Below are positions 4,186-64,000 of a stretch of DNA of 64,000 bases, one piece after another. The notes beneath the pieces are model-generated. The model was given only the letters and a program-made list of their open reading frames with translations. It was not told the DNA's origin and made no database searches. Position 1 is the first letter of the stretch. Each line of letters begins with the position of its first letter. The stretch spans positions 502,681-566,680 of the forward strand of contig OZ251219.1 of the NCBI GenBank assembly GCA_965240465.1, given 5' to 3'. The DNA comes from a bacterium. Lineage in GTDB: Bacteria; SAR324; JACQKK01. Position numbers and translations under genes: made by a program.

Positions 4186-4446
4186 GGTGTTTTTTGGCAG
4201 TGTCCTCTTGGCAGCGTTCTTTTGATGGTGTTCTCTCGGCAGTGTTCCCTCGGCAGTGTCCTCTTGGCAGTGTTTTTTTGATGGTGTTCTCTCAGCAGTG
4301 TTCTTTTGGCAGTGTTCTTTTGGCAGTGTTCTTTTGGCAGTGTCCTCTTGACAGCGTTATCTCGGCAGCGTTCTCTCAGCAGTGTCCTCTCGGCAGCGTT
4401 CTCTTGACAGCGTTCGCAGTGTCCTCTTGGCAGCGTTTTCTCGGAT
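4186..4446. repeat. 14-bp tandem repeat array (about 18 imperfect copies, consensus GGCAGTGTTCTTTT) filling the flhF-flhG spacer
   Basis: Direct reading shows ggcagtgttctttt repeated with variants such as ggcagtgtcctctt and ggcagcgttctctc. The 84-aa ORF at 4194..4448 is a repeat artefact. Confidence 0.9.
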
Positions 4447-6984: not shown

Positions 6985-7218
6985 TAAATGGCATTGCTTA
7001 CGACACTGCTTATGCGACAAATGGCATTGCTTACGACACTGCTTATGCGACAAATGACATTGCTTACGACACTGCTTATGCGACAAATGGCACTGCTTAC
7101 GACACTGCCTATGCGACAAATGACATTGCTTACGACACTGCCTATGCGACAAATGACATTGCTTACGACACTGCCTATGCGACAAATGGCATTGCTTACG
7201 ACACTGCCTATGCGATGA
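6985..7218. repeat. 33-bp tandem repeat, about 7 copies (AATGGCATTGCTTACGACACTGCTTATGCGACA)
   Basis: The period was verified from coordinates. Four overlapping ORFs on both strands (6963..7289 region) are generated purely by the repeat. Confidence 0.9.
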
Positions 7219-7375
7219 CATTGCTTATGGCACTGCTTATGCATAAAAGATTGACAGAGTTTCTCATAACGTCCTTAGTTTTGGATTGATTAGATGCTCT
7301 TCTTTTATCAGCGGGAGGTTGTTTGTCTTCCGTCGCATGCAGCGAACATGTGGCACGAAGCCATAAGGAGATAAC

Positions 7376-14235: not shown

Positions 14236-15216
14236 ATGAAACTGAAGACCAACACTATTATTTGTGGAGATTGTTTGATTGTATTGCAAAAATTTCCCAG
14301 TAACAGTATAGATTGTGTAATAACTTCCCCTCCTTATTACCAACAAAGAGGATATAACGGAATAGGTATAGGCAGAGAAAATGGATTAAATAATTACATT
14401 GAATCTCTACACGAAACATTTGATGAAGTGATAAGAGTTACAAAGAAAACAGGAAATATATTCTACAATATAGGAGATAAAATAAACAAGACTAAAGGTG
14501 CATTACTTATACCCTATAGGTTTGCTTTGCAAATGTTAGATCAATATAGGGAATTACAACTAATTAATAATATTACTTGGACAAAAAAAAACCCCACCCC
14601 ACGACAGTATAATAGACGATTAGTAAGTGCAACAGAACCGTTTTTTCATTTTGTAAAAAGTGGTGAATACTATTATGCAATAGATGAATATCTTGCCAGT
14701 AAATCCACAAAGAATCATAAACATACTCCTAAATTGGGATTGAGGTATCTTGAATTAATCAAGAAATCTAACCTAAGTGAGCAAGAAAAAGAAAAAGCCA
14801 ATATAGCTGTTAAAGAAGTTATTGATGAAGTTAAAGCAGGAGAAATACATGGTTTTAGAGTAAAGATAAAGGGTATTCATGCTCCAGCATTTGGCGGTCA
14901 GGAAGGGGGAAGACAAACTCAAATAAAAAAGCAAGGATTTACTATTATTAAGTTAAAAGGAAACCAATTAAAGAAAGATTATGTTGAAACGGCTGTAGAA
15001 AGTCCCCGTCACAAAATTAAACACCCAGCAGTATACCCTCTAAAACTTATAGAAGAGCTAATAAAACTTGGTTGCCCTCCCAATGGTATTGTACTTGATC
15101 ATTATTGTGGAAGTGGCACAACATTGGTAGCAGCTAAAAATCAAAATAGAAATTACATAGGGATTGAAATAAGCCCTGAATACTGCCAGTTATCACAACA
15201 GAGAATAGAGCAATGA
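14236..15216 (+). CDS. Beta-class N4/N6 DNA methyltransferase, probably N4-cytosine (SPPY)
   Basis: Motif IV (VITSPPYYQQ) is near the N-terminus and motif I (VLDHYCGSGTTLVAA) near the C-terminus, which is the beta permutation. It lies in an AT-rich island and shares an ATGA overlap with the next gene. Confidence 0.8.
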   Translation: MKLKTNTIICGDCLIVLQKFPSNSIDCVITSPPYYQQRGYNGIGIGRENGLNNYIESLHETFDEVIRVTKKTGNIFYNIGDKINKTKGALLIPYRFALQMLDQYRELQLINNITWTKKNPTPRQYNRRLVSATEPFFHFVKSGEYYYAIDEYLASKSTKNHKHTPKLGLRYLELIKKSNLSEQEKEKANIAVKEVIDEVKAGEIHGFRVKIKGIHAPAFGGQEGGRQTQIKKQGFTIIKLKGNQLKKDYVETAVESPRHKIKHPAVYPLKLIEELIKLGCPPNGIVLDHYCGSGTTLVAAKNQNRNYIGIEISPEYCQLSQQRIEQ

Positions 15217-21464: not shown

Positions 21465-23393
21465 TTGGGGGAATGGTCGGGGGAGAAGATTTTTTTAGCG
21501 ATGGCGATGGTGCCGTTTTTTCTTGTAGGAGATAATTTAGCTATGGTTGGAAAAGTACCTGTTGATAGGCATGAGCCCAAGTTTTCACGTGAGCGAGTGG
21601 GTAGTTTGAATGAGGGGGAGAGGGAGGAAGCCATTTCAGAGTTGATGGGAGCTGAGACGGAATCCCATGGGGATGTCGTGCGTCAGATGGTAGCAGAGGG
21701 GAAGCAGCGGGGTTCTATCACTTTGGAAGAAATAAATGAGTGTCTGACTTATGAAAAAGATACTGATAAGAAGGCCTCTGCAGAGCTATTGGAAGATTTA
21801 TTGGTATTTTTTCAAGATATGAAGATAGAGGTGCTAGATAATGGTAAAGCCTTGGACTTAGCACAGCATCGCGGAGAACAATCATCCAAAAATAGCTACA
21901 ATATGGAGCCCTCGGTTGATATTCGTACTGATGACCCCGTACGCATGTATTTGCGTGAGATGGGACACATCAAGTTATTATCTCGTGCCGAGGAGGTGGA
22001 GATATCCAAACGGATAGAAGATGGGCAACGCAAGATGATAGAGGTTTTGGCTCGTTCTCCCTTAGTGGCAGAGCATTTATTGGAATTGCGTGAAAAACTT
22101 TATGATAAGCGGATCAAATCTCAAGAGCTTATTTCTGGGATGGATGAAGATGATAATGTGATTGAAGAAGATGGGATCTTCGCCGAAAAACTGCTGATAG
22201 TCCTAGATTCCATATATAAAAAACGCCGAGAGATCGCCAAGCTTCTGGCTAAAGATTTAACCAAGAATACCGAATCCAAGATCATCAAGACTCGTCAGAC
22301 TTTGTCTTTTATCATAGAAGGCATTAATTTCAACTCTCGGCAGGTGGGTACCATGTGCGAAGTGATGCTCCAACATCGCAATAAAATATACCGAGCCTCT
22401 AGCCAACTTGAATCTCTCCAGCAAAATCTGGGCAAACTAACAGATAAACAAAAAAACCTCCTTAATAAATGGCAGAGTGATTCTCTTAAATACGCCAAAC
22501 TAGAAACAGAAATTGAAAAACTCTGTGGCAAAAGCCCACGAATCATCAGACGACTGATGGAAAAAATGTTCATCACCGATACCAGAATCAAACGCCTTAT
22601 AACTCAAGCCGAAGCCACTAGAGAAGAATTCCAAACGGAAATCGGACTCCTAGTAGCATCTGAACGCAAGGTTAAAAAAGCCAAAACTCAACTCACTCAA
22701 GCCAACCTCAGATTGGTTATCAGCATTGCCAAAAAATACGCCAACCGAGGACTACAATTCCTAGACCTAATCCAAGAAGGTAATATCGGGCTCATGAAAG
22801 CCGTAGATAAATTTGAATACCGACGCGGCTATAAATTCTCTACCTATGCTACTTGGTGGATCCGACAAGCAATCACTCGGGCCATCGCCGACCAAGGACG
22901 AACCATTCGGGTGCCAGTCCACATGATCGAAACCATGAATAAATTATTACGCACTTCACGACAACTAGTACAAGAACTCGGCAGAGAACCCTACCCTGAG
23001 GAAATCGCTAAAGAAGTGAACCTGCCCTTGGAAAAAGTACGCAAAGTATTCCAAATCGCCAAAGAACCAACCTCGCTGGAAACACCCATCGGCGAAGAAG
23101 AAGACTCCCACTTAGGCGACTTCATCCCCGATCCCAACGCTCAAATGCCCGAAGACCTCGCCCTTACCCAAAACCTCCGTGAAAATACACGCGAAGCACT
23201 GGATAAACTAACCGAACGAGAAGGTAAAGTCCTCGCAATGCGTTTCGGAATCGGAAAACAACGCGATCACACCCTAGAAGAAATCGGACAAGATTTTGAC
23301 GTCACCAGAGAGCGTATCCGACAAATTGAAGCCAAAGCACTACGCAAACTGCGTCATCCCGTACGCTCTAAGCACTTGCGTACCTTCTTTTAG
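21465..23393 (+). CDS. rpoD: RNA polymerase sigma-70 factor RpoD
   Basis: Region 1.2 is [11 protein letters not shown]. Region 2 is [12 protein letters not shown]...[44 protein letters not shown]. Region 4 is [30 protein letters not shown]. The true start is probably the internal Met at 21645 (MGAETESH..). Confidence 0.9.
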
Positions 23394-23648
23394 CTCGCTC
23401 AATCGGATCACTCATAGCTCGCTCAATCGGATCACTCAATTAGCTCGCTCAATTAGCTCGCTCAATCGGATCACTCATAGCTCGCTCAATCGGATCACTC
23501 AATTAGCTCGCTCAATTAGCTCGCTCAATCGGATCACTCATAGCTCGCTCAATCGGATCACTCAATTAGCTCGCTCAATTAGCTCGCTCAATTAGCTCGC
23601 TCAATTAGCTCGCTCAATTAGCTCGCTCAATCGGATCACTCAATTAGA
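23391..23648. repeat. Composite tandem array: a 63-bp higher-order unit x3 built from TAGCTCGCTCAAT(CGGATCACTCA), then a 13-bp unit x5
   Basis: Read directly. The rpoD TAG stop codon (23391-23393) is the first triplet of the array. Confidence 0.9.
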
Positions 23649-31779: not shown

Positions 31780-33804
31780 ATGACCTTTCTTCCTACTTCT
31801 CTTAATGTTTCTGCATCTCAGTTACGCAAGGCGGCGAATGCCTTGCGTTTTTTGGCTATGGATGCGGTACAAAAGGCTAATTCGGGTCATCCTGGGATGC
31901 CGATGGGCATGGCAGATATTGCCACCGTCTTATGGGGTGGATTTTTGCGACACAATCCTACTAATCCAGCTTGGTTTGATCGGGATCGTTTTGTCCTATC
32001 CAATGGGCATGGTTGTATGCTGCTTTATGGGCTTTTGCATTTGAGTGGTTATGATCTACCATTGGAGGCCCTACAGCAATTTCGTCAATGGGGCAGTCAA
32101 ACGCCCGGTCACCCTGAATACGGGCATACTCCGGGGGTGGAAGTGACTACCGGTCCCCTAGGGCAAGGGATTGCCAATGCAGTGGGTTTTGCGTTGGCAG
32201 AGCGATGGCTAGCACAACGTTTTAATCGTGATGCTCATGAGATAATAAACCACCGTACCTATGTGTTTTTGGGGGATGGCTGCCTGATGGAAGGTCTTAG
32301 TCATGAGGCTTGCAGTCTGGCAGGTCACCTAAAACTAGGACGTCTAATCGCCCTTTATGATGATAATCACATCAGCATTGATGGTCCCACTGAGCTATCC
32401 TTTAGCGAGAACGTTCCTCAGCGATTTAGCAGCTATGGCTGGAAAACCCAACAATTAGATGGTCATGACCCAGTTGCCATAAAAGCTGCTCTGGAGAATG
32501 CTCAGCGAGATCAATCTGCTCCTCATTTGCTGTGCTGCAAAACCACCATCGGCTGGGGAGCACCGAGCAAAGCTGGGCAAGCTTCCACCCATGGTTCACC
32601 GCTGGGTGATGAAGAAATTGCGGCTACCCGCCAAAAGCTGAATTGGCATCACCCCCCATTTGAACTGCCCCCTGAGGTAAAGGAATTCTGGCAGGTTTCC
32701 CTGAAAAAAGGTCAACAACTAGAAGCTGACTGGAACCAACAATTGAGTGCTTATCAACAACAATTTCCCTCAGAAGCAACCGAACTCAAACGTATTATTA
32801 AAGGGAAACCCTCTCAACAATGGCAACAACCCCTAGAAAACCTACTGCTGCAATGGAAAACTCAACCCCCAGCAGAAAATGCCACCCGAGCTCATTCAGG
32901 AGCAGTACTAAACACCATCGTCCCTTGCCATACCGACCTACTAGGAGGTTCTGCCGACCTCACTCCCTCCAATAACACCCGCACCAACCACCACACCGAC
33001 ATCTCCCCACTACAATGGCAGGGAAATTATATCCGCTATGGCGTAAGAGAACACGCCATGGGTGCCATAATGAACGGATTGGCTCGCCATGGAGGTTGTC
33101 TGCCCTATGGGGCTACCTTCCTTACCTTCTCCGACTACATGCGTCCCGCCATTAGAATGGCAGCTATAATGAAAATCCAAGTAATCTATGTCTTCACTCA
33201 TGACAGCATCGGACTAGGAGAAGACGGACCCACCCACCAACCTATAGAACATCTAGCCAGCTTGAGAGCTATCCCCAACCTTAGAGTACTCAGACCCGCA
33301 GATGCCCGCGAAACCGCCCAATGTTGGCAATTAGCCCTCCAATACCAAGGACCCTCACTACTGGCTCTCAGCAGACAAAAAATCCCTCACCTGCCCGGCT
33401 CCCAACAATATCTCTGTCATCAGGGTGCTTATATCATCTCCTCTAGCAAACAAACACCCAAAGCAATACTGATGGCTAGTGGAACAGAGGTGCAAATCGC
33501 CATCCAAGCCCAAACCCTCCTGGAACAACAAAACATCCCTACCAGAGTGATCAGCATGCCCTGCTGGGAACTCCTTACCACTCAGCATCATTCTTTGCTA
33601 TCACTTCCCGAGCCAGTCGTTAAACTAGCCATAGAAGCCGCCAGCCCATTTGGTTGGCATCAGTGGCTCGGAGAACAGGGCATCGCCCTGGGGATGCAAT
33701 CCTTTGGAGCTTCCGCCCCAGCCGATAAACTATATACCCAGTTTAATCTCACCCCCCAGGCAATCGTAAAAGAAGTCCAAACTCGCTGCAAACTAAACAC
33801 TTAA
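31780..33804 (+). CDS. tkt: Transketolase
   Basis: ANALRFLAMDAVQKANSGHPGMPMGMADIA, GHG.MLLY, GPLGQG, FLGDGCLMEG and THDSIGLGEDGPTHQP are present. Confidence 0.95.
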   Translation: MTFLPTSLNVSASQLRKAANALRFLAMDAVQKANSGHPGMPMGMADIATVLWGGFLRHNPTNPAWFDRDRFVLSNGHGCMLLYGLLHLSGYDLPLEALQQFRQWGSQTPGHPEYGHTPGVEVTTGPLGQGIANAVGFALAERWLAQRFNRDAHEIINHRTYVFLGDGCLMEGLSHEACSLAGHLKLGRLIALYDDNHISIDGPTELSFSENVPQRFSSYGWKTQQLDGHDPVAIKAALENAQRDQSAPHLLCCKTTIGWGAPSKAGQASTHGSPLGDEEIAATRQKLNWHHPPFELPPEVKEFWQVSLKKGQQLEADWNQQLSAYQQQFPSEATELKRIIKGKPSQQWQQPLENLLLQWKTQPPAENATRAHSGAVLNTIVPCHTDLLGGSADLTPSNNTRTNHHTDISPLQWQGNYIRYGVREHAMGAIMNGLARHGGCLPYGATFLTFSDYMRPAIRMAAIMKIQVIYVFTHDSIGLGEDGPTHQPIEHLASLRAIPNLRVLRPADARETAQCWQLALQYQGPSLLALSRQKIPHLPGSQQYLCHQGAYIISSSKQTPKAILMASGTEVQIAIQAQTLLEQQNIPTRVISMPCWELLTTQHHSLLSLPEPVVKLAIEAASPFGWHQWLGEQGIALGMQSFGASAPADKLYTQFNLTPQAIVKEVQTRCKLNT

Positions 33805-34477
33805 TGGCTAAATCTATCATGACTGTTATCATCGCCCCCTCCATTCTATCTGCCGATTTTGGTCGCCTCAATGAAGAGCTGGCTGCCCTGCAATCCTTTG
33901 GAGCTTCCGCCCCAGCCGATAAACTATATACCCAGTTTAATCTCACCCCCCAGGCAATCGTAAAAGAAGTCCAAACTCGCTGCAAACTAAACACTTAATG
34001 GCTAAATCTATCATGACTGTTATCATCGCCCCCTCCATTCTATCTGCCGATTTTGGTCGCCTCAATGAAGAGCTGGCTGCCCTGCAATCCTTTGGAGCTT
34101 CCGCCCCAGCCGATAAACTATATACCCAGTTTAATCTCACCCCCCAGGCAATCGTAAAAGAAGTCCAAACTCGCTGCAAACTAAACACTTAATGGCTAAA
34201 TCTATCATGACTGTTATCATCGCCCCCTCCATTCTATCTGCCGATTTTGGTCGCCTCAATGAAGAGCTGGCTGCCCTGCAATCCTTTGGAGCTTCCGCCC
34301 CAGCCGATAAACTATATACCCAGTTTAATCTCACCCCCCAGGCAATCGTAAAAGAAGTCCAAACTCGCTGCAAACTAAACACTTAATGGCTAAATCTATC
34401 ATGACTGTTATCATCGCCCCCTCCATTCTATCTGCCGATTTTGGTCGCCTCAATGAAGAGCTGGCTGCCCTGCAATC
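33695..34477. repeat. Perfect 194-bp tandem amplification (4 periods) spanning the tkt 3' end and rpe 5' end
   Basis: TGCAATC recurs at 33695, 33889, 34083, 34277 and 34471. Three identical 64-aa chimeric ORFs (33804, 33998, 34192) and identical antisense ORFs confirm that the copies are identical. Confidence 0.95.
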
Positions 34478-36816: not shown

Positions 36817-38790
<1,974 letters not shown>

Positions 38791-45331: not shown

Positions 45332-45868
45332 ATTGTTAAGCAGTTGGGTTTTTACTTGGGTTGCAAACCGAAGCAGGGTTTGATCTAGAGCTCGGTCGGT
45401 GAGTACGGGATCTTCCAGCCTCTCATCGGGAATGGTTATGGTGTATTGGGTTTTGATTATTTTTGGTCCCCAGAATGGTTTCCTATCGGTGGTTTTGTGA
45501 AGGGTGATTTGTCCTTGGAGGTCGTAGTTAAGCTGTCGGAAGGTTTTTGCTGAGGAGCTTTCTGCTGAGGAGCTTTCTGCTAAGAAGCTTTTTGCTAAGG
45601 AGTGTGAACGGGAGACGCTATTGAGGGTGATATAAAGTATCACCTGACTGTTGGAAGATTTTACCAGTTGGAGGGTATGGTGCTGTGCAAATTGATTTCT
45701 TAGGTGTTGGCGCAAACGGGTATCCAGTTCGGGGATGCTTGTTTGGTTTTGTACGGGGGCGATCCAGAGTCGGTTTGTGCCTTCGGGCAGGGACAAAGAG
45801 ACGGAACGGTAAGCACACCCAGTTGCAAGCAGGGCGAAGCAGAAACAAAGAGATAGACAGACCTTCAC
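45323..45868 (-). CDS. Outer-membrane lipoprotein, LptE-like
   Basis: A GTG start gives MKVCLSLCFCFALLATGC (lipobox LATGC). Size and the GC-AYR...P pattern are reminiscent of LptE/RlpB. There is an internal (AESSS)n repeat. The longer ORF to 45940 runs into the 83-bp repeat. Confidence 0.45.
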   Translation of the reverse strand: MKVCLSLCFCFALLATGCAYRSVSLSLPEGTNRLWIAPVQNQTSIPELDTRLRQHLRNQFAQHHTLQLVKSSNSQVILYITLNSVSRSHSLAKSFLAESSSAESSSAKTFRQLNYDLQGQITLHKTTDRKPFWGPKIIKTQYTITIPDERLEDPVLTDRALDQTLLRFATQVKTQLLNNGG

Positions 45869-45869
45869 A

Positions 45870-46175
45870 TGTACTGGGCTGTTTTCATTCAAAGAGATGG
45901 GCTGGGACAGAGCCTCAATTTGCAACCGTTCAAGCCTCACACGGATCCAACACGTACTGGGCTGTTTTCATTCAAAGAGATGGGCTGGGACAGAGCCTCA
46001 ATTTGCAACCGTTCAAGCCTCACACGGATCCAACACGTACTGGGCTGTTTTCATTCAAAGAGATGAGCTGGGACAGAGCCTCAATTTGCAACCGTTCAAG
46101 CCTCACACGGATCCAACACGTACTGGGCTGTTTTCATTCAAAGAGATGAGCTGGGACGGAGCCTCAACATGACTG
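45870..46175. repeat. 83-bp tandem repeat, about 3.7 copies, abutting the lptE-like start
   Basis: GTACTGG recurs at 45871, 45954, 46037 and 46120. Copies differ by 1-3 substitutions. Confidence 0.95.
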
Positions 46176-49063: not shown

Positions 49064-51661
49064 CTAAAATACTTGATAGGGGTCCATATCCACCGTGATA
49101 CGGGAATTATGAGATAATTTTTGCGGAATAAACCGTAGCCATCGCTGGAGAATCTTAGGCTGAGGATGCTTGATGAGCATTAAAAAACGAAAGGAGCGTT
49201 TCAGCTTGGGGATATGAGCTGGTGCTGGTCCTAAGAGGATGGGAAAGGGCTGAACCCGAGGAATATTTTCCTTGAGAACCACGGATATCCGTTGTGCTAG
49301 TTGCTGAGCTAGCTGGGCTTGAGGATTTTCCACCCAAATAAGAGCTTGATGCGTGAAAGGAGGACTTTTGGCTATTTCCCTAAGTTGAAGTTCATGGGAG
49401 GCAAATTGCAAGAATTGATGCTTAAGAGCTCCCTGTAGACTGTAATGCTGAGGGTTATAGGTTTGAATAAGAGCTTTACCGGGTACTGAGCCTCTACCTG
49501 CCCGACCAGCCATTTGGGTAAGTAATTGAAAGGTTCTTTCTGGAGCCCGAAAATCAGGGAGATTAAGGGAAAGATCGGCAAGTAGCATGCCCACTAAGGT
49601 GACTTGAGGAAAATGATGCCCCTTAGCCAAAATTTGAGTACCAATGGCGATATCAAATTTATGCTGAGACATGGTTTGAAGTAATCGCTCCAATTCACCA
49701 CGACGGCGTAGTACATCGGAATCGATACGCAAGATACGGGCTTGGGGAAAAAGCATGGTCGCTTCTTCCTCAATGCGTTGGATGCCAATGCCAGTAAGCT
49801 GGATGTTCTCAGAGCCACAATGCTGACAATTAGAAGGCACCGCCCGCTTAAAACCACAACGATGACACAATAATATCGCCTCATTTTGATGCCAAGTTAA
49901 AGCTATCGTGCAATGATCACATAAGACCGAAGTCAGGCAGTCTTGGCAGAGACTCAAAGAAGCAAACCCGCGGCGATTGAGAAACAAAAGTACCTGCTGT
50001 TTCTTGGCTAAGGTGTGACGAATTTCTTCGGTCAGCTGGCGAGTAAAGCACCAGCTCCCAGGCTGGCGAGGAGCATGACGCAAATCCAATAGCTGTATGA
50101 AGGGCATTTGTTGTTGCTGAGCTCGTTCGGGCAAGATAAGCAATCGCCATTTTTTTTGCTGTACCGCATGCCAGCTCTCCATGCTAGGAGTAGCACTTCC
50201 CAATAACACCACTGCCCCATTATGACGAGCCCTTATCAGTACCGCATCCCGAGCATGATAACGAGGAGCTTCTTCCTGCTTGTAAGAACTATCATGCTCC
50301 TCATCCACCACCACCAACCCCAAATTGGCTAATGGCGCAAACACCGCACTACGAGCCCCTATCGCTACCAAAGCTTCACCTCTCCTCACCCTCAGCCAGC
50401 CCTCCAAACGCTCATTAGACCCCAAAGCACTATGAAGCAAAACTACCCGACCCCCAAAACGAGCCTGAAATCGCTTGACTAACTCCGTACTTAAGGCAAT
50501 CTCTGGTGCCAGCACCAAACAACTGCGTCGCTGCTCCAATGCCTCACGAACCGCATGCAAATAAACCTCCGTTTTGCCGCTTCCAGTCACTCCTTGTAAA
50601 AAAAAACACTGTGACTCCCCCTCCTTAAGTGCCTGCTGTACCTCACTAAAAGCTGCCTGCTGGGCTGGATTCAGAGTTAAAAACTCCTCTCTTCCGACAT
50701 CTTCATTATTCTCCCCAAATTGCCCCCCCTCCCCTGATTGCCCCCCCTCCCCTGATTGCCCCCCCTCCCCTGATTGCCCCCCCTCCCCTGATTGCCCCCC
50801 AAATTGCTTTGAGGCTTGCTGTTCAACCTGTTTGCTTTCCAGCAGCTTTTCTGCTTCCAACTGACGCAACACCAAAGCGGGATTTTTCACCACTGCCCGC
50901 ACTCGTGCCAAGGGGATTTCTCCCTCTTCCCGCAGCAAACGCAAGATGCGTTCTCGTTTGGTTTCCCGACGCGGATTGCGAGTACTAGCCGATTTCTGCT
51001 TATCCACCAAGTGTACCCAAGTTTCCAACTTAGGAGCACCTGCCCCTCCTGATACCCGATGGCATTTCTCCAAAATTTCCCCACGCACTAATCGTTGTAG
51101 CCAGCGATCGGCTTCTGCTCCTCCTTTTTGCTGCTGAAACCAACTAGCAGTAAATCTTTTTCCCGACCGCTGACGAACCCGTAACCGCTCTGCCAGCTCT
51201 TCATTCAATCCCGACATCAATTCTGTTCCCTGCCGAGCAGCCGAGCGGGAAAACCAATACTCCATTTCAAAACGCACCCCCAAACCCCCAGGAATGGCTG
51301 CCGTCAAGGCTTCTCCCCAGCTACAATGATAATACTTCGCCAGCCAGCCACAAAAATCCACCACCTCCTGAGGCAACAAAGCCTCCTTATCCACCACCCG
51401 ATGCAAATCACGCAAGCGTTCCCCAGAGATATCGCTAGCTTCTTTCAGCCGTACTACCACTCCCACCTTTAACCGAGGCCCAAAAGGCACTACCACCCGA
51501 GAACCTACCTCCACCGACTCGGTTAAGCGATAATCAAAGGTTTTTGGCAAGGGCAGATCAAATGCCACTTCCACCACTTGCTTATCGGTGGACTGTTTAT
51601 CTGTGGACTGTTTATCCGCGGGCTGTTTATCTGTGGACTGTTTATCGGTGGGTTGCATCAT
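49064..51661 (-). CDS. priA: Primosomal protein N' (replication restart helicase PriA) with repeat-encoded inserts
   Basis: Walker A is QGVTGSGKTEVYL and DEAH-type is VVDEEHDSSYKQ. The Cys4/Cys4 zinc region is CQDC..CDHC...CHRCG....CQHCGS. The N-terminus has (TDKQS)n and there is an internal (GGQSGE)4.5. Confidence 0.9.
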   Translation of the reverse strand: MMQPTDKQSTDKQPADKQSTDKQSTDKQVVEVAFDLPLPKTFDYRLTESVEVGSRVVVPFGPRLKVGVVVRLKEASDISGERLRDLHRVVDKEALLPQEVVDFCGWLAKYYHCSWGEALTAAIPGGLGVRFEMEYWFSRSAARQGTELMSGLNEELAERLRVRQRSGKRFTASWFQQQKGGAEADRWLQRLVRGEILEKCHRVSGGAGAPKLETWVHLVDKQKSASTRNPRRETKRERILRLLREEGEIPLARVRAVVKNPALVLRQLEAEKLLESKQVEQQASKQFGGQSGEGGQSGEGGQSGEGGQSGEGGQFGENNEDVGREEFLTLNPAQQAAFSEVQQALKEGESQCFFLQGVTGSGKTEVYLHAVREALEQRRSCLVLAPEIALSTELVKRFQARFGGRVVLLHSALGSNERLEGWLRVRRGEALVAIGARSAVFAPLANLGLVVVDEEHDSSYKQEEAPRYHARDAVLIRARHNGAVVLLGSATPSMESWHAVQQKKWRLLILPERAQQQQMPFIQLLDLRHAPRQPGSWCFTRQLTEEIRHTLAKKQQVLLFLNRRGFASLSLCQDCLTSVLCDHCTIALTWHQNEAILLCHRCGFKRAVPSNCQHCGSENIQLTGIGIQRIEEEATMLFPQARILRIDSDVLRRRGELERLLQTMSQHKFDIAIGTQILAKGHHFPQVTLVGMLLADLSLNLPDFRAPERTFQLLTQMAGRAGRGSVPGKALIQTYNPQHYSLQGALKHQFLQFASHELQLREIAKSPPFTHQALIWVENPQAQLAQQLAQRISVVLKENIPRVQPFPILLGPAPAHIPKLKRSFRFLMLIKHPQPKILQRWLRFIPQKLSHNSRITVDMDPYQVF

Positions 51662-51713: not shown

Positions 51714-52310
51714 TTATTTTGCTTTTGCAGGAGGAGGTCGGGGGGAGGGTTTTTCCTCGGCTGGAGAACGCAACAATTTGTGTATCAGACCTTCCATTTT
51801 CTTAGCTTTTTTACTACCCTTATGTATCTCCCCTACCAAATTCAATTTCACCTGACCCTGTTTATCTATTAGATAGAAGCTAGGCCAATAATTATTATTC
51901 AAGGATTTCCAATAAGCATAATCATTATCTAGATAAACTGGCTGAGTTATCTTGAAGTGCTTGACTGCACTTTCCACATGTCCATACCTTTTTTCATAGG
52001 GAAACTCAGGAGTATGAACACTAATCACCCGCAAACCCTGCTTCTTATATCTATCTCTCACCTCGTGGACCCACGGGAAACTGCGAATACAATTAATTCA
52101 CACCGAAGTCCAAATCTCAACCAGAACTACCTGACCCCAAAAATTATCCCGTGATAAAGGCGGGCTATTAATCCAACTGGCCGCTTTCTGATGCTTAAAC
52201 TCGGGCATCTTCAGCTCCTTCTGCTCCTTTCGCTTACCCAGAGCATACCCAGTCACCAAAAAAATACCCAACAACAATGCTACCCCTGAACCCCATTGAA
52301 ATACTTTCAT
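51714..52310 (-). CDS. Periplasmic thioredoxin-like (DipZ C-terminal / redoxin-type) protein with in-frame TGA at the CxxC position: candidate selenoprotein (U-I-N-C), or else a pseudogene
   Basis: ORFs 52098..52310 and 51714..52061 are in the same frame, separated only by the TGA at 52098-52100. The joined sequence ...VVLVEIWTSV-U-INCIRSFPWVHEVRDRYKKQGLRVISVHTPEF...YWPSFYLID aligns with the FWTYSCINC...GVHTPEF...YWPA.YLID pattern of DipZ-like redoxins. Confidence 0.6.
52061..52077 (-). promoter_or_regulatory. SECIS-like hairpin downstream of the in-frame UGA
   Basis: The mRNA reads CCCGUG-GGUC-CACGAGG. This gives 6 bp with one bulged A and a GGUC apical loop, starting 21 nt 3' of the UGA. 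Confidence 0.35.
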
Positions 52311-52345
52311 TAATTACCTCATAATAACTAGTCCCGACCCAAAAC

Positions 52346-52460
52346 TCACCTGCCTACCTTCTCACCTGCCTCTGCTACTTACCTGCCTCTGCTACTTACC
52401 TGCCTCTGCTACTTACCTGCCTACCTTCTCACCTACCTACCTTCTCACCTGCTTGCCACC
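52346..52460. repeat. 17-bp tandem repeat (ACCTGCCTCTGCTACTT) x3 flanked by related CACCTGCCTACCTTCT units
   Basis: Read directly. It is intergenic. Confidence 0.85.
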
Positions 52461-52567: not shown

Positions 52568-53506
52568 ATGCATAAAATAAAACCCGAACACAAGATTCAA
52601 AGACCCAATCCCCACTCCAATCCCCACTCCACCCCCGCCTCTTCAACTGGCAGAAATGACCCATGCTGGTGCGGTAGTGGCAAAAAATACAAAAAATGCC
52701 ACCTAGTACCAAACCAAAACCCAGCTCCTTCCTTATCCTCTAATCTCCTAACACCCGCAAACCATCAGATCATCCTTAAAACACCCGCCCAAATCGCTAA
52801 CATTCGCAAATCCTGTCAACTGGTACATAACACCCTGAATATGCTCGAAAATCGCCTTGAAGCAGGAATCACTACCAACCAAATCAACCACTGGGTACAT
52901 CAATATACCCTTGATCATAACGCCCGTCCCGCCCCCCTTTATTATCGCGGTTATCCTAAATCGGTCTGTACTTCGGTCAATGAAGTAGTCTGCCACGGCA
53001 TCCCCAACGATGTACCCCTCCAGCCCGGTGATATAATCAATGTGGATGTAACTTCCATCCTTAATGACTACTATGGCGACTCCAGCCGCATGTTCTTCAT
53101 TGAACCCATCAGTAATCAAGCCCGCAATTTATGTGAAACTACCCTCCAATGCCTCAACCGAGCCATCGCAAAAGTCCAACCCAATGCCAAACTGGGCGAT
53201 ATCGGACACGCCATCCAATCCCATGCCGAAGCCCAAGGATATTCCGTAGTGAAAGATTTTGTCGGACACGGGGTAGGTATTTCCTTCCACGAAGAACCCA
53301 TGGTACCTCACTTCGGTCGCCCCAATACTGGAATGACCCTTAAAGCGGGCATGATCTTCACCATTGAACCCATGATCAACCTCGGCGACTGGGCAGTAGA
53401 AATCCTCTCCGACCAATGGACCGCGGTCACCAAAGATCGTTCCCTCTCAGCCCAATATGAACACACCATCTTAGTAACCCCAAAAGGACACGAAGTGCTA
53501 ACCTGA
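52568..53506 (+). CDS. map: Type I methionine aminopeptidase with an N-terminal SEC-C zinc motif
   Basis: NDPCWCGSGKKYKKCH is the SEC-C motif. The MAP blocks are VCHGIP, GDIINVDV...DSSRMF, GHG.G..FHE and FTIEPM. Confidence 0.9.
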   Translation: MHKIKPEHKIQRPNPHSNPHSTPASSTGRNDPCWCGSGKKYKKCHLVPNQNPAPSLSSNLLTPANHQIILKTPAQIANIRKSCQLVHNTLNMLENRLEAGITTNQINHWVHQYTLDHNARPAPLYYRGYPKSVCTSVNEVVCHGIPNDVPLQPGDIINVDVTSILNDYYGDSSRMFFIEPISNQARNLCETTLQCLNRAIAKVQPNAKLGDIGHAIQSHAEAQGYSVVKDFVGHGVGISFHEEPMVPHFGRPNTGMTLKAGMIFTIEPMINLGDWAVEILSDQWTAVTKDRSLSAQYEHTILVTPKGHEVLT

Positions 53507-57327: not shown

Positions 57328-58503
57328 ATGCAACCCACCCTGCGACCTACCCTGCGACCTACCCTGCAATCCAACCGACCTACCCTGCGACCTACCCTGC
57401 AATCCAACCTGCGACCCAACACCGTGTTTTGTCGCGATAATTTAGACGTCCTAGGCGGCATTAACAGCAACTGCATTGACCTGATCTATCTTGATCCCCC
57501 TTTTAACAAAGGTAAGCAGTTTCACGCTCCTGCGGGCAGTGAAGCGGAGGGAGCTGATTTTAATGACATATGGAGGGAAGAATCCGTCAAGGATGAATGG
57601 CATGGGGAAATCAAATTCAAAAAACCTAAACTCTATAAGTACTTAGATGCCGTAGGAGAGATAGGCAACCGTTCTACTAAGTATTATCTCATTTACATGG
57701 CGGTGCGTTTGTTTGAAATATACCGCATCTTAAAAGAGACTGGGAATCTGTATCTGCACTGCGATACCACCATGTCGCATTATTTGAAGATACTGCTGGA
57801 CTGCATTTTTGGAATAAATAATTTCAAAAATGAAATTATCTGGAGACGAGATGCCGCTGGCAAAGGAGGCAAGCGAGTATCTCATCAATGGCCTCGTTCT
57901 AGCGATGTACTATTGCTCTTTTACAAAGGAGATTCCTCTTTTTTTCATCAACAATACACCCCATTGGGAGAAGCACAGCAAAAAGTCTATCGCTATCAAG
58001 ACGAGGATGGTCGTTTTTATAAGGCAGTCCAGTTAGGCAATTATTCCAAAACGTCCATTCAACAAATGACCAAAGAAGGCCTGATACATACTTCTGGCAC
58101 TGGAAAAATGTATAAAAAATACTACCTGGATAATGCCAAAAGTACCATTGATTGCATCTGGGATAATATCTACGGCTTTGGGGTAAGAACTGCCTCCAAA
58201 GAGCGTACGGGATATCCAACCCAAAAACCCTTGGCTCTTTTGGAACGCATTATTCAGGCGTCCTGTCCCGTAGGTGGTCTGGTGCTGGATCCTTTCTGCG
58301 GATGTGCTACCACTTGCATTGCAGCCTCACGTTTGGGGCGTAAATGGATCGGGATTGACATCGCCCCCAAAACCTTTGATTTGGTAAAAACCCGCCTGCA
58401 AAACGAAGTCCCTCCAGAACTATTAACAAGCAAAACCAGCTACCGAACGGACATCCCCGTACGCACGGATATGGATCATAAAAGAAATGCTACCAGAGGA
58501 TAA
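57328..58503 (+). CDS. Beta-class N4/N6 DNA methyltransferase (DPPF), C-terminal HNH tail lost by frameshift
   Basis: Motif IV is IYLDPPFNKG and motif I is VLDPFCGCATTCIAA. It ends ...YRTDIPVRTDMDHKRNATRG*. An in-frame GTG at 57424 (VFCRDNLDVL) is a plausible real start downstream of the repeat. Confidence 0.8.
   Translation: MQPTLRPTLRPTLQSNRPTLRPTLQSNLRPNTVFCRDNLDVLGGINSNCIDLIYLDPPFNKGKQFHAPAGSEAEGADFNDIWREESVKDEWHGEIKFKKPKLYKYLDAVGEIGNRSTKYYLIYMAVRLFEIYRILKETGNLYLHCDTTMSHYLKILLDCIFGINNFKNEIIWRRDAAGKGGKRVSHQWPRSSDVLLLFYKGDSSFFHQQYTPLGEAQQKVYRYQDEDGRFYKAVQLGNYSKTSIQQMTKEGLIHTSGTGKMYKKYYLDNAKSTIDCIWDNIYGFGVRTASKERTGYPTQKPLALLERIIQASCPVGGLVLDPFCGCATTCIAASRLGRKWIGIDIAPKTFDLVKTRLQNEVPPELLTSKTSYRTDIPVRTDMDHKRNATRG
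57334..57418. repeat. 12-nt-based tandem repeat (CCTGCGACCTAC / CCTGCAATCCAA) overlapping the annotated 5' end of the methyltransferase ORF
   Basis: Read directly. It encodes (PTLR)n(PTLQSN)n. Confidence 0.85.
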
Positions 58504-58614: not shown

Positions 58615-59163
58615 ATGTTAATATCATATGTAAAGACATGTGAAAAAGTTGCTAATGTTGTACTAAATACAGGTACATCAAAAGCAAAAATAGTATTTGA
58701 TTTTATTATAGATAAAAAGAGAGGAGGAAAGCAGGGTGGTATTGTTTATTTATTTGTTGTTAATAAGGTAATATATAAAATAGGATACACAAGATCTAAG
58801 GATGGTATCAAGGGGGCATTAACTGCATATCAAGGGGGGATAGGGGGTAGTCCAAGTTTAAGAACATATGGTATACATATTCTACTTCATAAAGAGTTAA
58901 AGGAAAATAGTATCGTGGAAGTATATGCTATTTTTAGTAACACTATGCACGGAAAAGTAAAAGGATTATTCAAAACGTATGACAATATACAAATATCACC
59001 TTCACATGAAATGGAAGATATATGTAAAAAGGATTATATCGCGGTTGAAAAAAAATACCCTAAGTGGAATTTTAAGGAAAATGGAGAAGATTTTCCTAAT
59101 TACATACAAGTTATGCATGCCAAGCAGCTGGTTCATCAGAAATCAAAGAGAAATCGCAAGTAG
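58615..59163 (+). CDS. GIY-YIG nuclease-domain protein, putative Type II restriction endonuclease
   Basis: GGIVYLFVVNKVIYKIGYTR matches GIY-(x9-11)-YIG, with later acidic residues. It is about 183 aa, AT-rich, and convergent with the Dam-like methylase, overlapping its 3' end by 21 nt. Confidence 0.55.
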   Translation: MLISYVKTCEKVANVVLNTGTSKAKIVFDFIIDKKRGGKQGGIVYLFVVNKVIYKIGYTRSKDGIKGALTAYQGGIGGSPSLRTYGIHILLHKELKENSIVEVYAIFSNTMHGKVKGLFKTYDNIQISPSHEMEDICKKDYIAVEKKYPKWNFKENGEDFPNYIQVMHAKQLVHQKSKRNRK

Positions 59164-60078
59164 TTCATGCGATTTCTTTATATGAGAATCGGCATTATAT
59201 ACATCCCTATTGTTTAATACTTTTGATATTCTTGTTTCACCTTGTCCCATTGTATATTGCCAAGATGGATAAAATATGTCACATTTCTTATAGTACTCTT
59301 CGCTTTTTTTGCAATTGTTATACGATAATATAAAGCCGCTTTTGTGATCCATTAATAGGTCTCTCAATAGTTCATGGTTAAATTTAGTATGATGAATAGG
59401 TCTATTGCGTTCAGGATAAATACCATTAAACATCTTACTTGTTTCATCATCTGTTTTAAGAAAATAAGGTGGGTCGCAATAAAAGAAATCCTTGGGGTAT
59501 CTTTTAAATAATTCCTCAAATGATTCGCATGTAATTTTTATACTTGATTCAAAATCTCGTACTCGTTCAATCATTTTTCCGTATTTTCTATCATCTAGAT
59601 AAACACTTGATGCCCATCCAATAAAAGAAGGTCCATAAGATAAATTATGATTATAGAAAAAGTACACTGCTTGTTCTAATTTAGATAATTTTAATTCTCC
59701 TTTTCTCCATTTTTTGACTATTGCTTTTATTCTTAGATATTCCTCTTTTGTTGGTTTCAGTTTTTTTAATTCTTTATAAAGCACATGTGGTTCATTAATT
59801 TGGTATTGCCAATAATTAACTAATACAGGATTAATTTCACATGCAATAATTTCAATCCCTAATTTTTGCTCCATTGCAATTTCAATACTGCCACCCCCAA
59901 AAAAAGGAGATATTACTCGCTTGACAGCTGGTAGATGCTCAATTACATGCCCCACTGCCAAACTTTTACCACCCCCATATCTTATGGGGGATAGTGCCAG
60001 TCGTTTATATTTACGTTTTTCTGAGTGCAGGCTTCCTAGCAGGTCCTGTATACTCATTTTTGGTATTTCCTTAAACAT
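59143..60078 (-). CDS. Dam-family (alpha-class, D12) N6-adenine DNA methyltransferase
   Basis: PIRYGGGKS, motif I SPFFGGGSIE and motif IV FFYCDPPYFL are present. Confidence 0.8.
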   Translation of the reverse strand: MFKEIPKMSIQDLLGSLHSEKRKYKRLALSPIRYGGGKSLAVGHVIEHLPAVKRVISPFFGGGSIEIAMEQKLGIEIIACEINPVLVNYWQYQINEPHVLYKELKKLKPTKEEYLRIKAIVKKWRKGELKLSKLEQAVYFFYNHNLSYGPSFIGWASSVYLDDRKYGKMIERVRDFESSIKITCESFEELFKRYPKDFFYCDPPYFLKTDDETSKMFNGIYPERNRPIHHTKFNHELLRDLLMDHKSGFILSYNNCKKSEEYYKKCDIFYPSWQYTMGQGETRISKVLNNRDVYNADSHIKKSHELLAISL

Positions 60079-60202: not shown

Positions 60203-63200
60203 CTAGAGCAAGGCTTTTAGGGCTTTTCCCGTATGGCTAGCTGGGTTTTGGCAGATTTCTTGGGGAGTTCCCATCGCCACGATTTCACCACCGAGTTCTC
60301 CCTCTTCGGGACCTAAATCTAGAATGAAATCCGCGGTTTTCAGAACCTCCAGATTGTGTTCTATCACCACCACCGAGTGTCCTTGGTCCACGATGCGGTG
60401 CAGAGCCGCCAGCAATTTGCAAACATCCTCTGAGTGTAAGCCAGTAGTGGGCTCATCAAATAGATAAAGAGTGGGTAGGGAGCGGAGCTTATTTAGCTCG
60501 GCGGCTAGTTTGAGTCGCTGAGCCTCCCCGCCAGAAAGAGTGTTGGCAGCTTGTCCTAGCTGGATGTACCCCAGTCCCACCTCAGCCAGAGTTTCCAACC
60601 CGCGTTTGATTTGGGGCTGATTGGCAAATAGCGAGCGAGCGGGCTGGACTTCCAGCTGCAATATATCGGCAATGCTGTATCCTTTGAAGGTTATTTGCAG
60701 GGTTTGTTGATTATAACGCTTTCCCTTGCATTGTGGGCATTTAGTCCAAACATCAGCCAGAAAATGCATCTCAATATGCAGGAAGCCGCGTCCCTCGCAA
60801 GTGGTACAGCGTCCTGAGGGCATATTGAAGCTAAACCGCCCTGCCGAGTAACCCCTCGCCCGAGCTTGGGGCATGGCGGCCATCAAGGTGCGTAGGTGGG
60901 ACATTAACCCCATATAAGTGGCTGGATTAGACCTCGGGGTTCTGCCGATGGGAGTTTGGTCAACCACCAGCAAGCGTTCAATGGATTGAAAACCACTCAG
61001 GCTACCCAGAACCGCAGGAAGACTAGCTTGGCTGGTTCCTAAATGATTCTCCAACAAGGGTCTTAGAACCTGATGAATGAGGGTACTTTTGCCACTCCCA
61101 GAAACACCGCTCACTGCCACTAAGGACTGCAAGGGTATTTTGGCTTGAACGTTCTTTAGATTATGCAAGGAGACATTTTTAAGCTGCAGGAAATTCCGAA
61201 CGGGTCGGATTTTGGCGGGTAGTGGAATCATTCGGCGACCACTGAGATATTGACCCGTAAGAGAACTCGCCTTAGCCGCAACCTGACGGGGAGTGCCTTG
61301 GGCAACTACTTGCCCTCCATAGCGACCGGCCGCGGGACCGATATCTATCAGGTGGTCGGCAAATTTAATCACTTGAGGATCATGTTCCACCACGCAGATG
61401 GTATTGCCACGCCGCTTGAGCTGATCCAAAGTATTCAGCAGCTGTTGGGTGTCTCTGGGATGAAGACCGATGGTGGGTTCATCCAGTACATAAAGTACTC
61501 CCACCAACTGAGCCCCCAATTGAGATGCCAAGCGAATACGCTGAGCCTCACCACCAGAAAGGGTGGAAGACCGACGATGAAGATGAAGATGCCCCAAACC
61601 TACATTTTCCAAAAAAATAAGCCGCGAATAGATCTCTTGGCGAGGCTGCTTAGCGATCAAGGCTTCGTTCTCAGATAGCTGCCATTGTTCAAGTTGCTGC
61701 TTGGCTTGGCTGACCGTTTGCTGGCAAAACTCAGCAATGGATGTTTTCTGCCAGCGTACATTGCGGGCTAGTGGCATTAATCGGGATCCTTGGCAGGCTG
61801 GACAAGCAACTAAGTTCAGCAATTCTGCTACATCCCGCTTATGAGACTCATCACTTTGGGCTAGCTTTTGACTAAGCAGGGTGTTAATCCCTGGTAGCTG
61901 CCCATCTCCTTCCATCAGCCAAAGGCGTTCCTGAGGGAGCAAATTTTTGGCAGCCTTGGAAATATAAATCCGATGGCGGCGGGCAATGCGTCTAGCTCCC
62001 CTTTGAATGTTGCTGTGAGGATTGTTGAACCAAGCCGTTATCGCACTGGGGCGTAATGCCCCCTTAAAGAGAGGTTTCTTAGGGTTGATAACCCAACGCT
62101 CCCAATCCAGCTGAGTAGTATTTCCCAGCCCCTCACAAGTGGGACAAGCCCCATGGGGCGAATTAAAACTGAATTGTCGTGGAGATAACTCGGGCCAAGT
62201 TATGCCATCTTTTAGACAAGTTGGATGCTCGCTAAATAAGAGTACCTCAGGGCTGGATTTTTGGATTGCATCAGGGGAGAAATCATCCCCCTTGACCAAG
62301 CTCACTAAGCCACCGTTTTGTTTATAGGCGGTGGTAATTGATTCATCCAAGCGTTGCCGTTGGGAAGCATCACACTTCAGGCGGTCAATAACGATGTGTA
62401 GCTGGGATAGCTGATTCGTTCTTTGGGGCTGATATTGCTCCAGTTCCCACATTTGAGGCTTAGGAGCTGATTGCCAAAGGCGAGTAAAGCCCTCTGCCTG
62501 ATAAGTATCCAAGCGTTTTTTGAGGGCTGCTTTACCGATAATCTCAGGTTGGGCTGGGATAGCCATGGGAGTACATACCAGTAGGTGTTTCTTTGAAACA
62601 CCGCTCCCAGAAACACCGCTCCCAGAAACACCGCTCCCAGAAACACCGCTTTCAGCAGATTGCAACAGTAGCAGCTGAGTGAGCTGTGCAGCTGGAAAAG
62701 CCTTGAGCGGAGCTTGACAGTGGGGGCAGTGAGGTTGTCCTAGGCGAGCATAGATGATACGCAGATAGTCATAAATTTCGGTAGCCGTAGCCACAGTAGA
62801 ACGCGGAGTACGAGTACTATGCTTTTGATCAATTGCAATGGCAGGGCTCAATCCCTCAATGGAGCGGACTCTGGGTTTATCCATTCTGCCGAGGAAACGA
62901 CGGGCATAAGTAGAAAGTGATTCCACATAACGAGCTTGACCTTCTGCAAATAGGGTATCCAACGCCAAGCTGCTTTTGCCACAGCCAGAAACTCCCGTGA
63001 GGACGGTCAGCTTATTTTTAGGGAGTCGTACATCAATGTTTTGGAGGTTGTTGTTTTCCGCGCCCCAGACTAGTATATCGCGGGAAGGCTGGAAGGCTTT
63101 CTTAGCTAACAGATTACCATCCGCTGGATGTTTGTCTGGTTTCCAGTTTCCTAAGGGAGATTTTAGTACTTCCTTGAGGGCCAGACCAGTCAACGAGTTT

Positions 63201-64000
63201 TTATGTTCGGCAATGACCTCAGGAGGACCTTCTGCCACCAATTTACCGCCTTGGTCTCCGCCATGGGGACCTAAATCAAGGATCCAATCGGCACTATTTA
63301 GTACGTCTAGATTGTGCTCAATCACCACCACGCTGTGTCCTGCCTCTACCAGACCATGCAGGCATGAGAGCAGGTTAAAGACATCCTTGCCATGCAAACC
63401 AGTAGTAGGCTCATCCAGTAGATATAGGGTGTGTAAGCCCGGCTTCTTGCGGAGCTCTGAGGCTAATTTAAGCCGTTGGGCTTCGCCTCCAGATAAGGTG
63501 GTACTGGGTTGTCCTAGTACCAGATATCCTAATCCTACTTCTACCAAAGAATTCAGGATCCGCTTGGCTTCGGGTACCGATGAAAAAAATTGCTGGGCTT
63601 CATCAACAGTCATGCCCAAGACAGATTGAATATGGTGCTGCTTATAGCGTACCTGTAGGGTTTCTTCATTAAAGCGACGCCCCTGACAAGCCTCACAAAC
63701 CACTTCTACATTGCTTAAAAACTGCATTTCAATCACCCGTACTCCCCCTCCTTTACAGATCTCGCAGCGACCGCCCTTTACATTAAAACTAAAGCGTCCC
63801 GCCTTATACCCTCGCATGCGTGCCAAGCGGGTACGAGTGAACAAATCCCTAATAACATCCATCAATTTGGTGTAGGTAGCCGCATTGCTACGGGGAGTGC
63901 GTCCGATCGGGGTTTGGCTGATTTCAATCACCTTATTAAGCTCTTGCAATCCCTTTATCTGCGACACCAATGATAAGGGTTGGCGATTCAAATAGGCTCG
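60203..64000 (-). CDS. uvrA: Tandem-fused (single-chain double) UvrA-like excinuclease ATPase; 5' end lies outside the window
   Basis: The ORF is open to the window edge. The visible part contains the C-terminal half of one UvrA unit (..IGRTPRSNAATYT.., CxxC...CxxC, LSGGEAQRLKLA, LLDEPTTGLH). A linker of about 30 aa follows, then a complete second unit starting NNLQNIDVRLP...GVSGCGKSSLALDTLFAEGQARYVESLSTYARRFLG and running to its own end. Confidence 0.85.
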   Translation of the reverse strand, partial: RAYLNRQPLSLVSQIKGLQELNKVIEISQTPIGRTPRSNAATYTKLMDVIRDLFTRTRLARMRGYKAGRFSFNVKGGRCEICKGGGVRVIEMQFLSNVEVVCEACQGRRFNEETLQVRYKQHHIQSVLGMTVDEAQQFFSSVPEAKRILNSLVEVGLGYLVLGQPSTTLSGGEAQRLKLASELRKKPGLHTLYLLDEPTTGLHGKDVFNLLSCLHGLVEAGHSVVVIEHNLDVLNSADWILDLGPHGGDQGGKLVAEGPPEVIAEHKNSLTGLALKEVLKSPLGNWKPDKHPADGNLLAKKAFQPSRDILVWGAENNNLQNIDVRLPKNKLTVLTGVSGCGKSSLALDTLFAEGQARYVESLSTYARRFLGRMDKPRVRSIEGLSPAIAIDQKHSTRTPRSTVATATEIYDYLRIIYARLGQPHCPHCQAPLKAFPAAQLTQLLLLQSAESGVSGSGVSGSGVSGSGVSKKHLLVCTPMAIPAQPEIIGKAALKKRLDTYQAEGFTRLWQSAPKPQMWELEQYQPQRTNQLSQLHIVIDRLKCDASQRQRLDESITTAYKQNGGLVSLVKGDDFSPDAIQKSSPEVLLFSEHPTCLKDGITWPELSPRQFSFNSPHGACPTCEGLGNTTQLDWERWVINPKKPLFKGALRPSAITAWFNNPHSNIQRGARRIARRHRIYISKAAKNLLPQERLWLMEGDGQLPGINTLLSQKLAQSDESHKRDVAELLNLVACPACQGSRLMPLARNVRWQKTSIAEFCQQTVSQAKQQLEQWQLSENEALIAKQPRQEIYSRLIFLENVGLGHLHLHRRSSTLSGGEAQRIRLASQLGAQLVGVLYVLDEPTIGLHPRDTQQLLNTLDQLKRRGNTICVVEHDPQVIKFADHLIDIGPAAGRYGGQVVAQGTPRQVAAKASSLTGQYLSGRRMIPLPAKIRPVRNFLQLKNVSLHNLKNVQAKIPLQSLVAVSGVSGSGKSTLIHQVLRPLLENHLGTSQASLPAVLGSLSGFQSIERLLVVDQTPIGRTPRSNPATYMGLMSHLRTLMAAMPQARARGYSAGRFSFNMPSGRCTTCEGRGFLHIEMHFLADVWTKCPQCKGKRYNQQTLQITFKGYSIADILQLEVQPARSLFANQPQIKRGLETLAEVGLGYIQLGQAANTLSGGEAQRLKLAAELNKLRSLPTLYLFDEPTTGLHSEDVCKLLAALHRIVDQGHSVVVIEHNLEVLKTADFILDLGPEEGELGGEIVAMGTPQEICQNPASHTGKALKALL

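Follow-up and report, generated by a model that had tools for sequence, protein, structure and literature searches.

A probable selenocysteine-containing redoxin of the DipZ C-terminal type in a SAR324-like bacterium and the family-conserved hairpin behind its in-frame TGA

The stretch of bacterial DNA analysed in this study (64 kb, hereafter the window) carries housekeeping and restriction-modification genes, including priA, map, tgt, glyA, uvrA, polA, tkt, rpe, pyrG, nadA, nadC, rpoD, ddl, ftsW and methyltransferase genes. Among named proteins, those closest to its transketolase come from SAR324 and Lambdaproteobacteria and share 62% identity with it. With priA and map as its direct neighbours lies a minus-strand reading frame (52310..51714) whose sole interruption is a TGA at 52100..52098, so that the frame consists of 70 codons, the TGA and 127 further codons (Table 1). 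In the program-made list of open reading frames (ORFs), this gene appears as a pair of ORFs, 70 and 115 aa long, in the same frame. The original prediction had described two collinear ORFs in one frame, split only by this TGA, and both position and frame proved right; its description needed correction in that the gene sits on the minus strand.

Table 1. Features of the candidate selenoprotein gene in the window
Feature	Positions	Strand	Remarks
GAGG Shine-Dalgarno-like motif	52317..52320	minus	6 nt 5' of ATG; read from sequence
Candidate selenoprotein gene, 198 codons	51714..52310	minus	ATG 52310, putative Sec-TGA 52100..52098, TAA 51716..51714
N-terminal hydrophobic segment, residues 10-24, VALLLGIFLVTGYAL	52239..52283	minus	putative export signal or membrane anchor
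UGA as putative selenocysteine codon, residue 71	52098..52100	minus	column of the nucleophilic first Cys of CxxC; would give U-I-N-C
TGT codon, Cys74, resolving Cys of U-x-x-C	52089..52091	minus	invariant C74 column
Possible proximal hairpin	52081..52092	minus	UUGU-AUUC-GCAG (window), CUGC-AUCC-GCAG (family); RNAalifold
Predicted SECIS upper stem-loop	52061..52078	minus	UCCCGUG 52078..52072, loop GGUC 52071..52068, CACGAGG 52067..52061

When the frame is read through, the Pfam content of the 198-aa product is restricted to redoxin-type domains, and the product has a single hydrophobic segment. It matched Redoxin (PF08534) at 39.8 bits (cut-off 26.6; E = 5e-10) and Thioredoxin_8 at 33.3 bits (cut-off 27), while AhpC-TSA (PF00578) reached 25.9 bits, just under its cut-off of 26. 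The best NCBIfam match was ResA, at 52.8 bits against a cut-off of 170, and no NCBIfam model was specific for the clade to which the window protein belongs. The closest solved structure was the C-terminal domain of Mycobacterium tuberculosis DipZ (PDB 2hyx; E = 1.4e-26, residues 44-180), the active site of which reads C-I-N-C, and the CxxC register also matched YkuV, ResA and the Trx domains of NHLRC2 and SOQ1. The predicted assignment to redoxins of the DipZ C-terminal/TlpA type is thus supported by both the structural and the PF08534 matches. Two other identities were rejected: a DipZ/DsbD fusion, because the 198 aa include no multi-pass CcdA/DsbD membrane domain, and a peroxiredoxin, because the AhpC-TSA score falls below the cut-off and the site, WTSV-U-INC, is of the CxxC and not the TxxC type.

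The TGA falls on the catalytic centre of this domain. In an alignment with 16 Cys homologues from a large protein collection, its column was occupied by the first Cys of CxxC in 16/16, and N73, C74, R76, S77, F78, P79 and W80 were invariant; the active-site stretch is WTSV-[TGA]-INC-IRSFPW in the window and WTFx-C-WNC-YRSFPW in the homologues. Given also the CINC of DipZ, the TGA indeed replaces the nucleophilic Cys, as had been claimed. At the N-terminus, residues 10-24 gave the top Kyte-Doolittle 15-residue window of the read-through protein (2.37), and the other selenocysteine (Sec) forms described below have typical signal peptides with an AxA end. From this segment and the orthologue signal peptides, we infer an extracytoplasmic location of the window redoxin.

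Metagenomic DNA was scanned with the pattern TGG-N9-TGA-NNN-AAY-TGY-NNN-MGN-NNN-TTY-CCN-TGG, which demands TGA at the Cys column and fixes part of the 5' arm of the hairpin considered below, the loop and the 3' arm lying outside it. The scan returned 22 contigs, four of which were chance matches without an ORF. The other 18 (17 distinct sequences) were true orthologues, and when they were aligned at the TGA column, as the original prediction had proposed, all had TGA in the same column, with open and conserved frames on both sides of it. On either side of the TGA they were about 50% identical to the window protein (residues 35-70 before it, residues 72-180 after it), which argues that both halves are under purifying selection. 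The G+C content of the orthologue contigs ranged from 0.38 to 0.74, indicating that they come from very different organisms. The orthologues share a layout comprising a hydrophobic N-terminus or signal peptide, MPEF...WINS.PL, (I/V)WT(S/T)x-U-INCIRSFPWVHG and HTPEF...DNDYAYW...YWP.FYL, and many of the Sec-form genes themselves terminate in TGA. Profile and single-sequence searches of large protein databases returned Cys forms, fragments and one form translated with W, and no full-length Sec-annotated member. A scan of a genome collection (species representatives) with the read-through protein yielded one distant Thermoguttaceae locus only.

Immediately past the active site, the F-P-W-V-H-G codons of the Sec forms build a stem of 6-7 bp that starts 19-21 nt after the UGA and was found by RNAalifold without guidance. 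It is closed by a GGUC loop that lies 26 nt after the UGA in every Sec form and is invariant in 18/18 sequences. In the window, CCCGUG (52077..52072) begins 21 nt after the UGA, and the whole CCCGUG-GGUC-CACGAGG element at 52077..52061 lies where it had been predicted. Two pairs of the stem covary across the family, pair 33-48 (CG in 10 sequences, UA in 8) and pair 36-45 (GC in 12, AU in 6), with 0 of 36 cells broken; each state of one pair was seen together with each state of the other. Both pairs occupy synonymous sites, the third positions of Phe, Gly, Pro and His codons. Overall, 97% of the stem cells were paired, compared with 27-52% when the 3' partners were slid by 1-3 columns. Covariation of the paired sites gave Fisher p = 2e-5 and 5e-5, and p = 0.0014 and 0.013 when restricted to loci with G+C >= 0.55 (n = 13), all four values being uncorrected for phylogeny. 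Pseudo-covariation driven by G+C content was rejected, because the paired-site signal holds at G+C >= 0.55 and unpaired combinations of the same synonymous sites showed only a weak association (p = 0.043).

Codon choice in the hairpin region is narrow as well. The Val codon is GTC in 18/18 sequences, including those from genomes of 38-42% G+C, and Pro is encoded only by CCR, Gly only by GGR (or replaced by GAG) and Ser only by AGY. Since the loop and the 3' arm were outside the search pattern, the pattern did not impose them. Four Cys-form control genes (L024-L027) read PWL(H/K/N) at this place; the hairpin was found in 0/4 of them, with folding energies of 0 to -3.9 kcal/mol, whereas the Sec forms reach -5.0 to -11.9 kcal/mol. 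The published bSECIS model has a loop of 3-9 nt, an upper stem of 4-16 bp, a G in loop position 1 or 2 and a UGA-loop distance of 16-37 nt (PMC13188914). With its 4-nt GGUC loop, 6-7 bp stem and 26-nt spacing, the family hairpin falls within this geometry. A proximal hairpin between the UGA and the SECIS stem-loop is weakly indicated by RNAalifold; its variation comprises one-sided (G-U) changes only, with no compensatory change, and it lies partly within bases fixed by the pattern.

The window's own copy of the hairpin departs from the family in its 3' arm, which reads CACGAGG where the family has CACGGRR. This G-to-A change, which converts Gly to Glu, leaves one C-A mismatch (or a bulged A) in the family register, and the stem has a terminal U-G pair. 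The same variant occurs in an unrelated contig of 67% G+C (L020) and thus appears to be tolerated. Because of the mismatch or bulge, the window hairpin is weak: in isolation (22 nt) it folds at -6.1 kcal/mol, the second weakest of the set, only that of L020 being weaker (-5.0 kcal/mol). Relative to the bSECIS cut-off of <= -7.5 kcal/mol, the isolated hairpin falls short, and segments of 55 and 60 nt reach -8.4 and -9.9 kcal/mol, respectively. The 55-nt region folds no better than shuffled sequences (z = 0.14; 108/200 shuffles fold as well). Across the window, Rfam gave no match at gathering thresholds, and around the TGA site chance matches only (E <= 10). The presence of a SECIS in the window is therefore argued from comparison across the family and not from the single sequence. 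Of the SECIS-like hairpin originally claimed, conservation in the family, covariation and absence from Cys forms speak in favour, and the lack of distinctiveness in a single sequence speaks against. The single bulged base, which had been put forward as an fdhF-like feature, turned out to be the G-to-A change specific to the window and L020 and is not conserved in the family.

A neighbour-joining tree was built from 170 domain sequences, of which 17 were Sec forms (16 from metagenomes plus the window protein) and 153 were Cys forms, DipZ-like proteins of the CINC type among them. The Sec forms all fell into one 19-tip clade, and the 14 nearest neighbours of the window protein were all Sec forms. 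Of 35 residues that do not vary among 15 other Sec forms, the window protein keeps 34, 9/9 upstream and 25/26 downstream of the TGA. This retention, together with the placement in the Sec clade, speaks against both a newly arisen nonsense mutation and appreciable decay. We consider it highly likely that the minus-strand frame 52310..51714 constitutes a single intact gene encoding a small exported redoxin of the DipZ-C-terminal/TlpA type, in which Sec replaces the attacking Cys (U71-I-N-C74). On sequence grounds, the TGA at 52100..52098 is very probably a genuine selenocysteine codon.

The alternative that survives best, although we judge it unlikely, is that the gene descends from a true Sec ancestor in a lineage that has lost the Sec machinery, so that translation stops at the UGA and the gene is dying. 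Such a loss would agree with the content of the window, in which selA, selB and selD are absent from the ORFs and ARAGORN detected no tRNA-Sec or any other tRNA gene. It would likewise agree with the weakening of the hairpin by the G-to-A change and with the public gene calls, which end at the TGA: the N-terminal 70 aa (52098-52310) are deposited as a separate protein, P0391 (NCBI/ENA). However, sel genes are seldom expected in any 64-kb window, and the G-to-A variant recurs in the orthologue of L020. Moreover, the 127 codons past the TGA are open and retain clade-invariant residues nearly as completely as the upstream part. A scan of the 64-kb window for a second TGA-split ORF resembling a selenoprotein found no credible one. 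The only mention of this group that we found in the literature, two SAR324 single-cell genomes listed with an orphan SelD (PMC5029168), is uninformative on this point.

Considerably less likely still is an ordinary pseudogene, in which a recent TGY-to-TGA nonsense mutation has struck a Cys-type redoxin, an alternative raised in the original prediction itself. A single-base change from TGT or TGC would suffice to produce it, and the hairpin is statistically unremarkable when only one sequence is considered. Nevertheless, TGA stands in this column in all 17 distinct sampled members of the clade, and the window has the clade-specific hairpin codons GTC-CAC after TGG, whereas the Cys forms read PWL[HNK] and lack the hairpin. 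Scattered additional disruptions were seen neither in the window gene nor in the orthologues, the frames being intact on both sides of the TGA.

Least likely of all is that the TGA is a sense codon (Trp under code 4 or Gly under code 25) or a sequencing or assembly error: one ENA orthologue call, P0393, does render it as W (IEIWTSI-W-INCIRSFPWVHG, as under genetic code 4), but TGA terminates 8 of the 34 Pfam-supported ORFs of the window (TAA 17, TAG 9, TGA 8), so that a reassigned code is not the explanation, most orthologues also terminate in TGA, a CxxC redoxin with W or G in place of its catalytic Cys would lose its function, and the same TGA occurs in 18 independent contigs.

If the gene is intact and its TGA is decoded as Sec, a course of events can be proposed from established bacterial Sec insertion and from TlpA/ResA/DipZ-type proteins, from which we infer Sec insertion in this organism, export, the redox direction and the partner proteins. 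SelB carrying Sec-tRNA(Sec) and GTP would bind the GGUC hairpin (52078..52061) 26 nt downstream of the UGA, and the SelB-bound hairpin would recode the UGA at 52100..52098, giving Sec instead of a stop. The N-terminal hydrophobic segment would then send the redoxin across the inner membrane or anchor it there. The selenolate of Sec71 may attack a substrate disulfide (or sulfenate), Cys74 would resolve the mixed selenenylsulfide, and the oxidised redoxin would presumably be re-reduced by a DsbD/CcdA-type electron conduit. No CcdA/DsbD gene adjoins the redoxin gene, either in the window or in those orthologous loci that were examined, nor was a conserved partner gene found across the Sec-form loci examined, where GDH/PALP genes accompany one lineage and VWA or Rce1-like genes others. 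An Rce1-like CAAX protease gene lies just upstream of the Sec form in L007 (812-1495) and L014 (6722-7483), and a VWA-domain gene just downstream in L005 (1082-1996) and L007 (2399-3445); both are absent from the window.

Among Cys-containing relatives, the C-terminal domain of M. tuberculosis DipZ (PDB 2hyx, 5cyy) shares the C/U-I-N-C, HTPE(F/Y) and YWP motifs with the window protein. DipZ, a Cys protein, carries this domain in fusion with a membrane domain of the CcdA/DsbD type and with another C-terminal domain, whereas the window protein consists of one free-standing domain, has one hydrophobic segment, at its N-terminus, and is predicted to contain Sec. Another relative is a gammaproteobacterial Cys-type 'redoxin family protein' (for example from a Solemya symbiont and Thiotrichaceae), which matches the window protein in length and architecture, has a signal peptide and is 40-52% identical. 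It differs in having CWNC where the window has UINC, in reading PWL[HNK] where the Sec forms read PWVHG, and in lacking the hairpin.

With respect to the RNA element, the Escherichia coli fdhF SECIS has the apical loop GGUC. It shares with the window family a stem-loop within the coding region just after the UGA and a small apical loop containing G-U. E. coli SelB contacts G23 and U24 of the loop and a bulged U in the 5' arm, and the minimal element starts 11 nt after the UGA (PMC8659212). In the window family, by contrast, a bulged U in the 5' arm is absent from 18/18 sequences, the irregular A of the window lies in the 3' arm and is not conserved, and the loop is about 8 nt further from the UGA than in fdhF (26-nt spacing). 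Membership of the fdhF type was therefore rejected: the G-U of the loop is present, but the bulged U is absent from the 18 sequences and the stem starts 19-21 nt after the UGA.

Thioredoxin-fold proteins with UxxC are the commonest class of predicted bacterial selenoproteins, and for this reason the present gene leaves selenoprotein biology as known unchanged. UxxC redoxin selenoproteins are already catalogued, and the window gene adds one more member. One catalogued family, 'Redoxin family protein' (PF08534, UxxC), corresponds to what the GOS survey called 'Prx-like 3' (PMC2398784; Table 1 of PMC13188914). It has in common with the window protein PF08534, UxxC with Sec in first position and an origin mainly in environmental sequence. 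The GOS 'Prx-like 3' matched pfam08534 weakly (E > 0.001), compared with 5e-10 for the window protein, a comparison made by description only, and the window protein may represent a different, DipZ-like clade. Also catalogued among predicted bacterial selenoproteins is a 'Prx-like thiol:disulfide oxidoreductase'. The catalogued TlpA-like UxxC selenoproteins share with the window protein the TlpA-like thioredoxin fold, UxxC and a bSECIS directly after the UGA; compared by description only, the window protein may be set apart from these families by its AhpC-TSA (PF00578) score of 25.9, just under the cut-off of 26.

A bolder interpretation, which we put forward as a tentative and rather doubtful one, is that the window gene is the first member to be recognised, in a SAR324-like genome, of a separate clade of exported DipZ-type redoxin selenoproteins that spans a very wide phylogenetic range (host G+C 38-74%) and lies outside the catalogued UxxC families. 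In such a clade, the SECIS, with its invariant GGUC, fixed 26-nt spacing and GTC/CAY/GGR codons, would impose P-W-V-H-G on the protein, and the gene would be systematically split or mistranslated (TGA as W) in public databases. At the level of annotation, the analysis corrects an error that has produced a public 70-residue stub and an orthologue with Trp at the catalytic position. If the selenoprotein assignment is true, selenocysteine decoding, and the use of selenocysteine outside the cytoplasm, would occur in a SAR324-like bacterium whose genome is laden with repeats. The constraint exerted by the SECIS shows up in codons and a peptide motif that stay frozen across diverse genomes, which may be useful for training predictors of SECIS elements and selenoproteins.

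Several other features of the window were observed. Short-period tandem repeats are unusually abundant in it (60 TRF rows, periods of 7-63 nt) and are mostly intergenic or at gene ends; examples are found at 4187-4437, 6986-7242, 23390-23647 and 52344-52452, the last of these arrays lying just upstream of the candidate selenoprotein gene. In-frame tandem repeats also occur within housekeeping genes, at 51582-51651 and 50711-50800 (priA) and at 36920-37120 (CTP synthase). QSTDK-type repeats (15-nt unit, 4.7 copies) stand at the start of PriA, which also has an internal GGQSGE repeat (18-nt unit, 5 copies), and CTP synthase carries a repeat insert. At 45867-46167, an 83-bp unit is present in 3.6 copies with 98% identity and gives repeated identical peptides, IQHVLGCFHSKR*AGTEPQ, in one frame. 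At 33695-34477, four copies of a 194-bp unit follow one another head to tail with 100% identity. Each runs from the last 36 transketolase codons across the intergenic spacer into the ribulose-phosphate 3-epimerase gene, of which it covers the first ~29 codons. The tkt/rpe junction is thus quadruplicated, perhaps by a true duplication or perhaps through an assembly artefact.

The neighbouring map gene (52568-53506) encodes a methionine aminopeptidase that is extended at its N-terminus by a segment bearing a SEC-C/SWIM-type Cys-rich metal-binding motif and that gives a PRK12318-type MetAP match. Four methyltransferase or restriction-modification loci are present in the 64 kb (344-3119, 14236-15216, 57328-58503 and 59143-60078), comprising type I M and S subunits, an N6/N4 methylase and two adenine methylases. 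The G+C content of the first 4 kb is 0.33, compared with about 0.47 elsewhere in the window. The UvrA ORF at 60203-63991 encodes at least 1262 aa, with ~480 extra N-terminal residues ahead of the canonical UvrA match.
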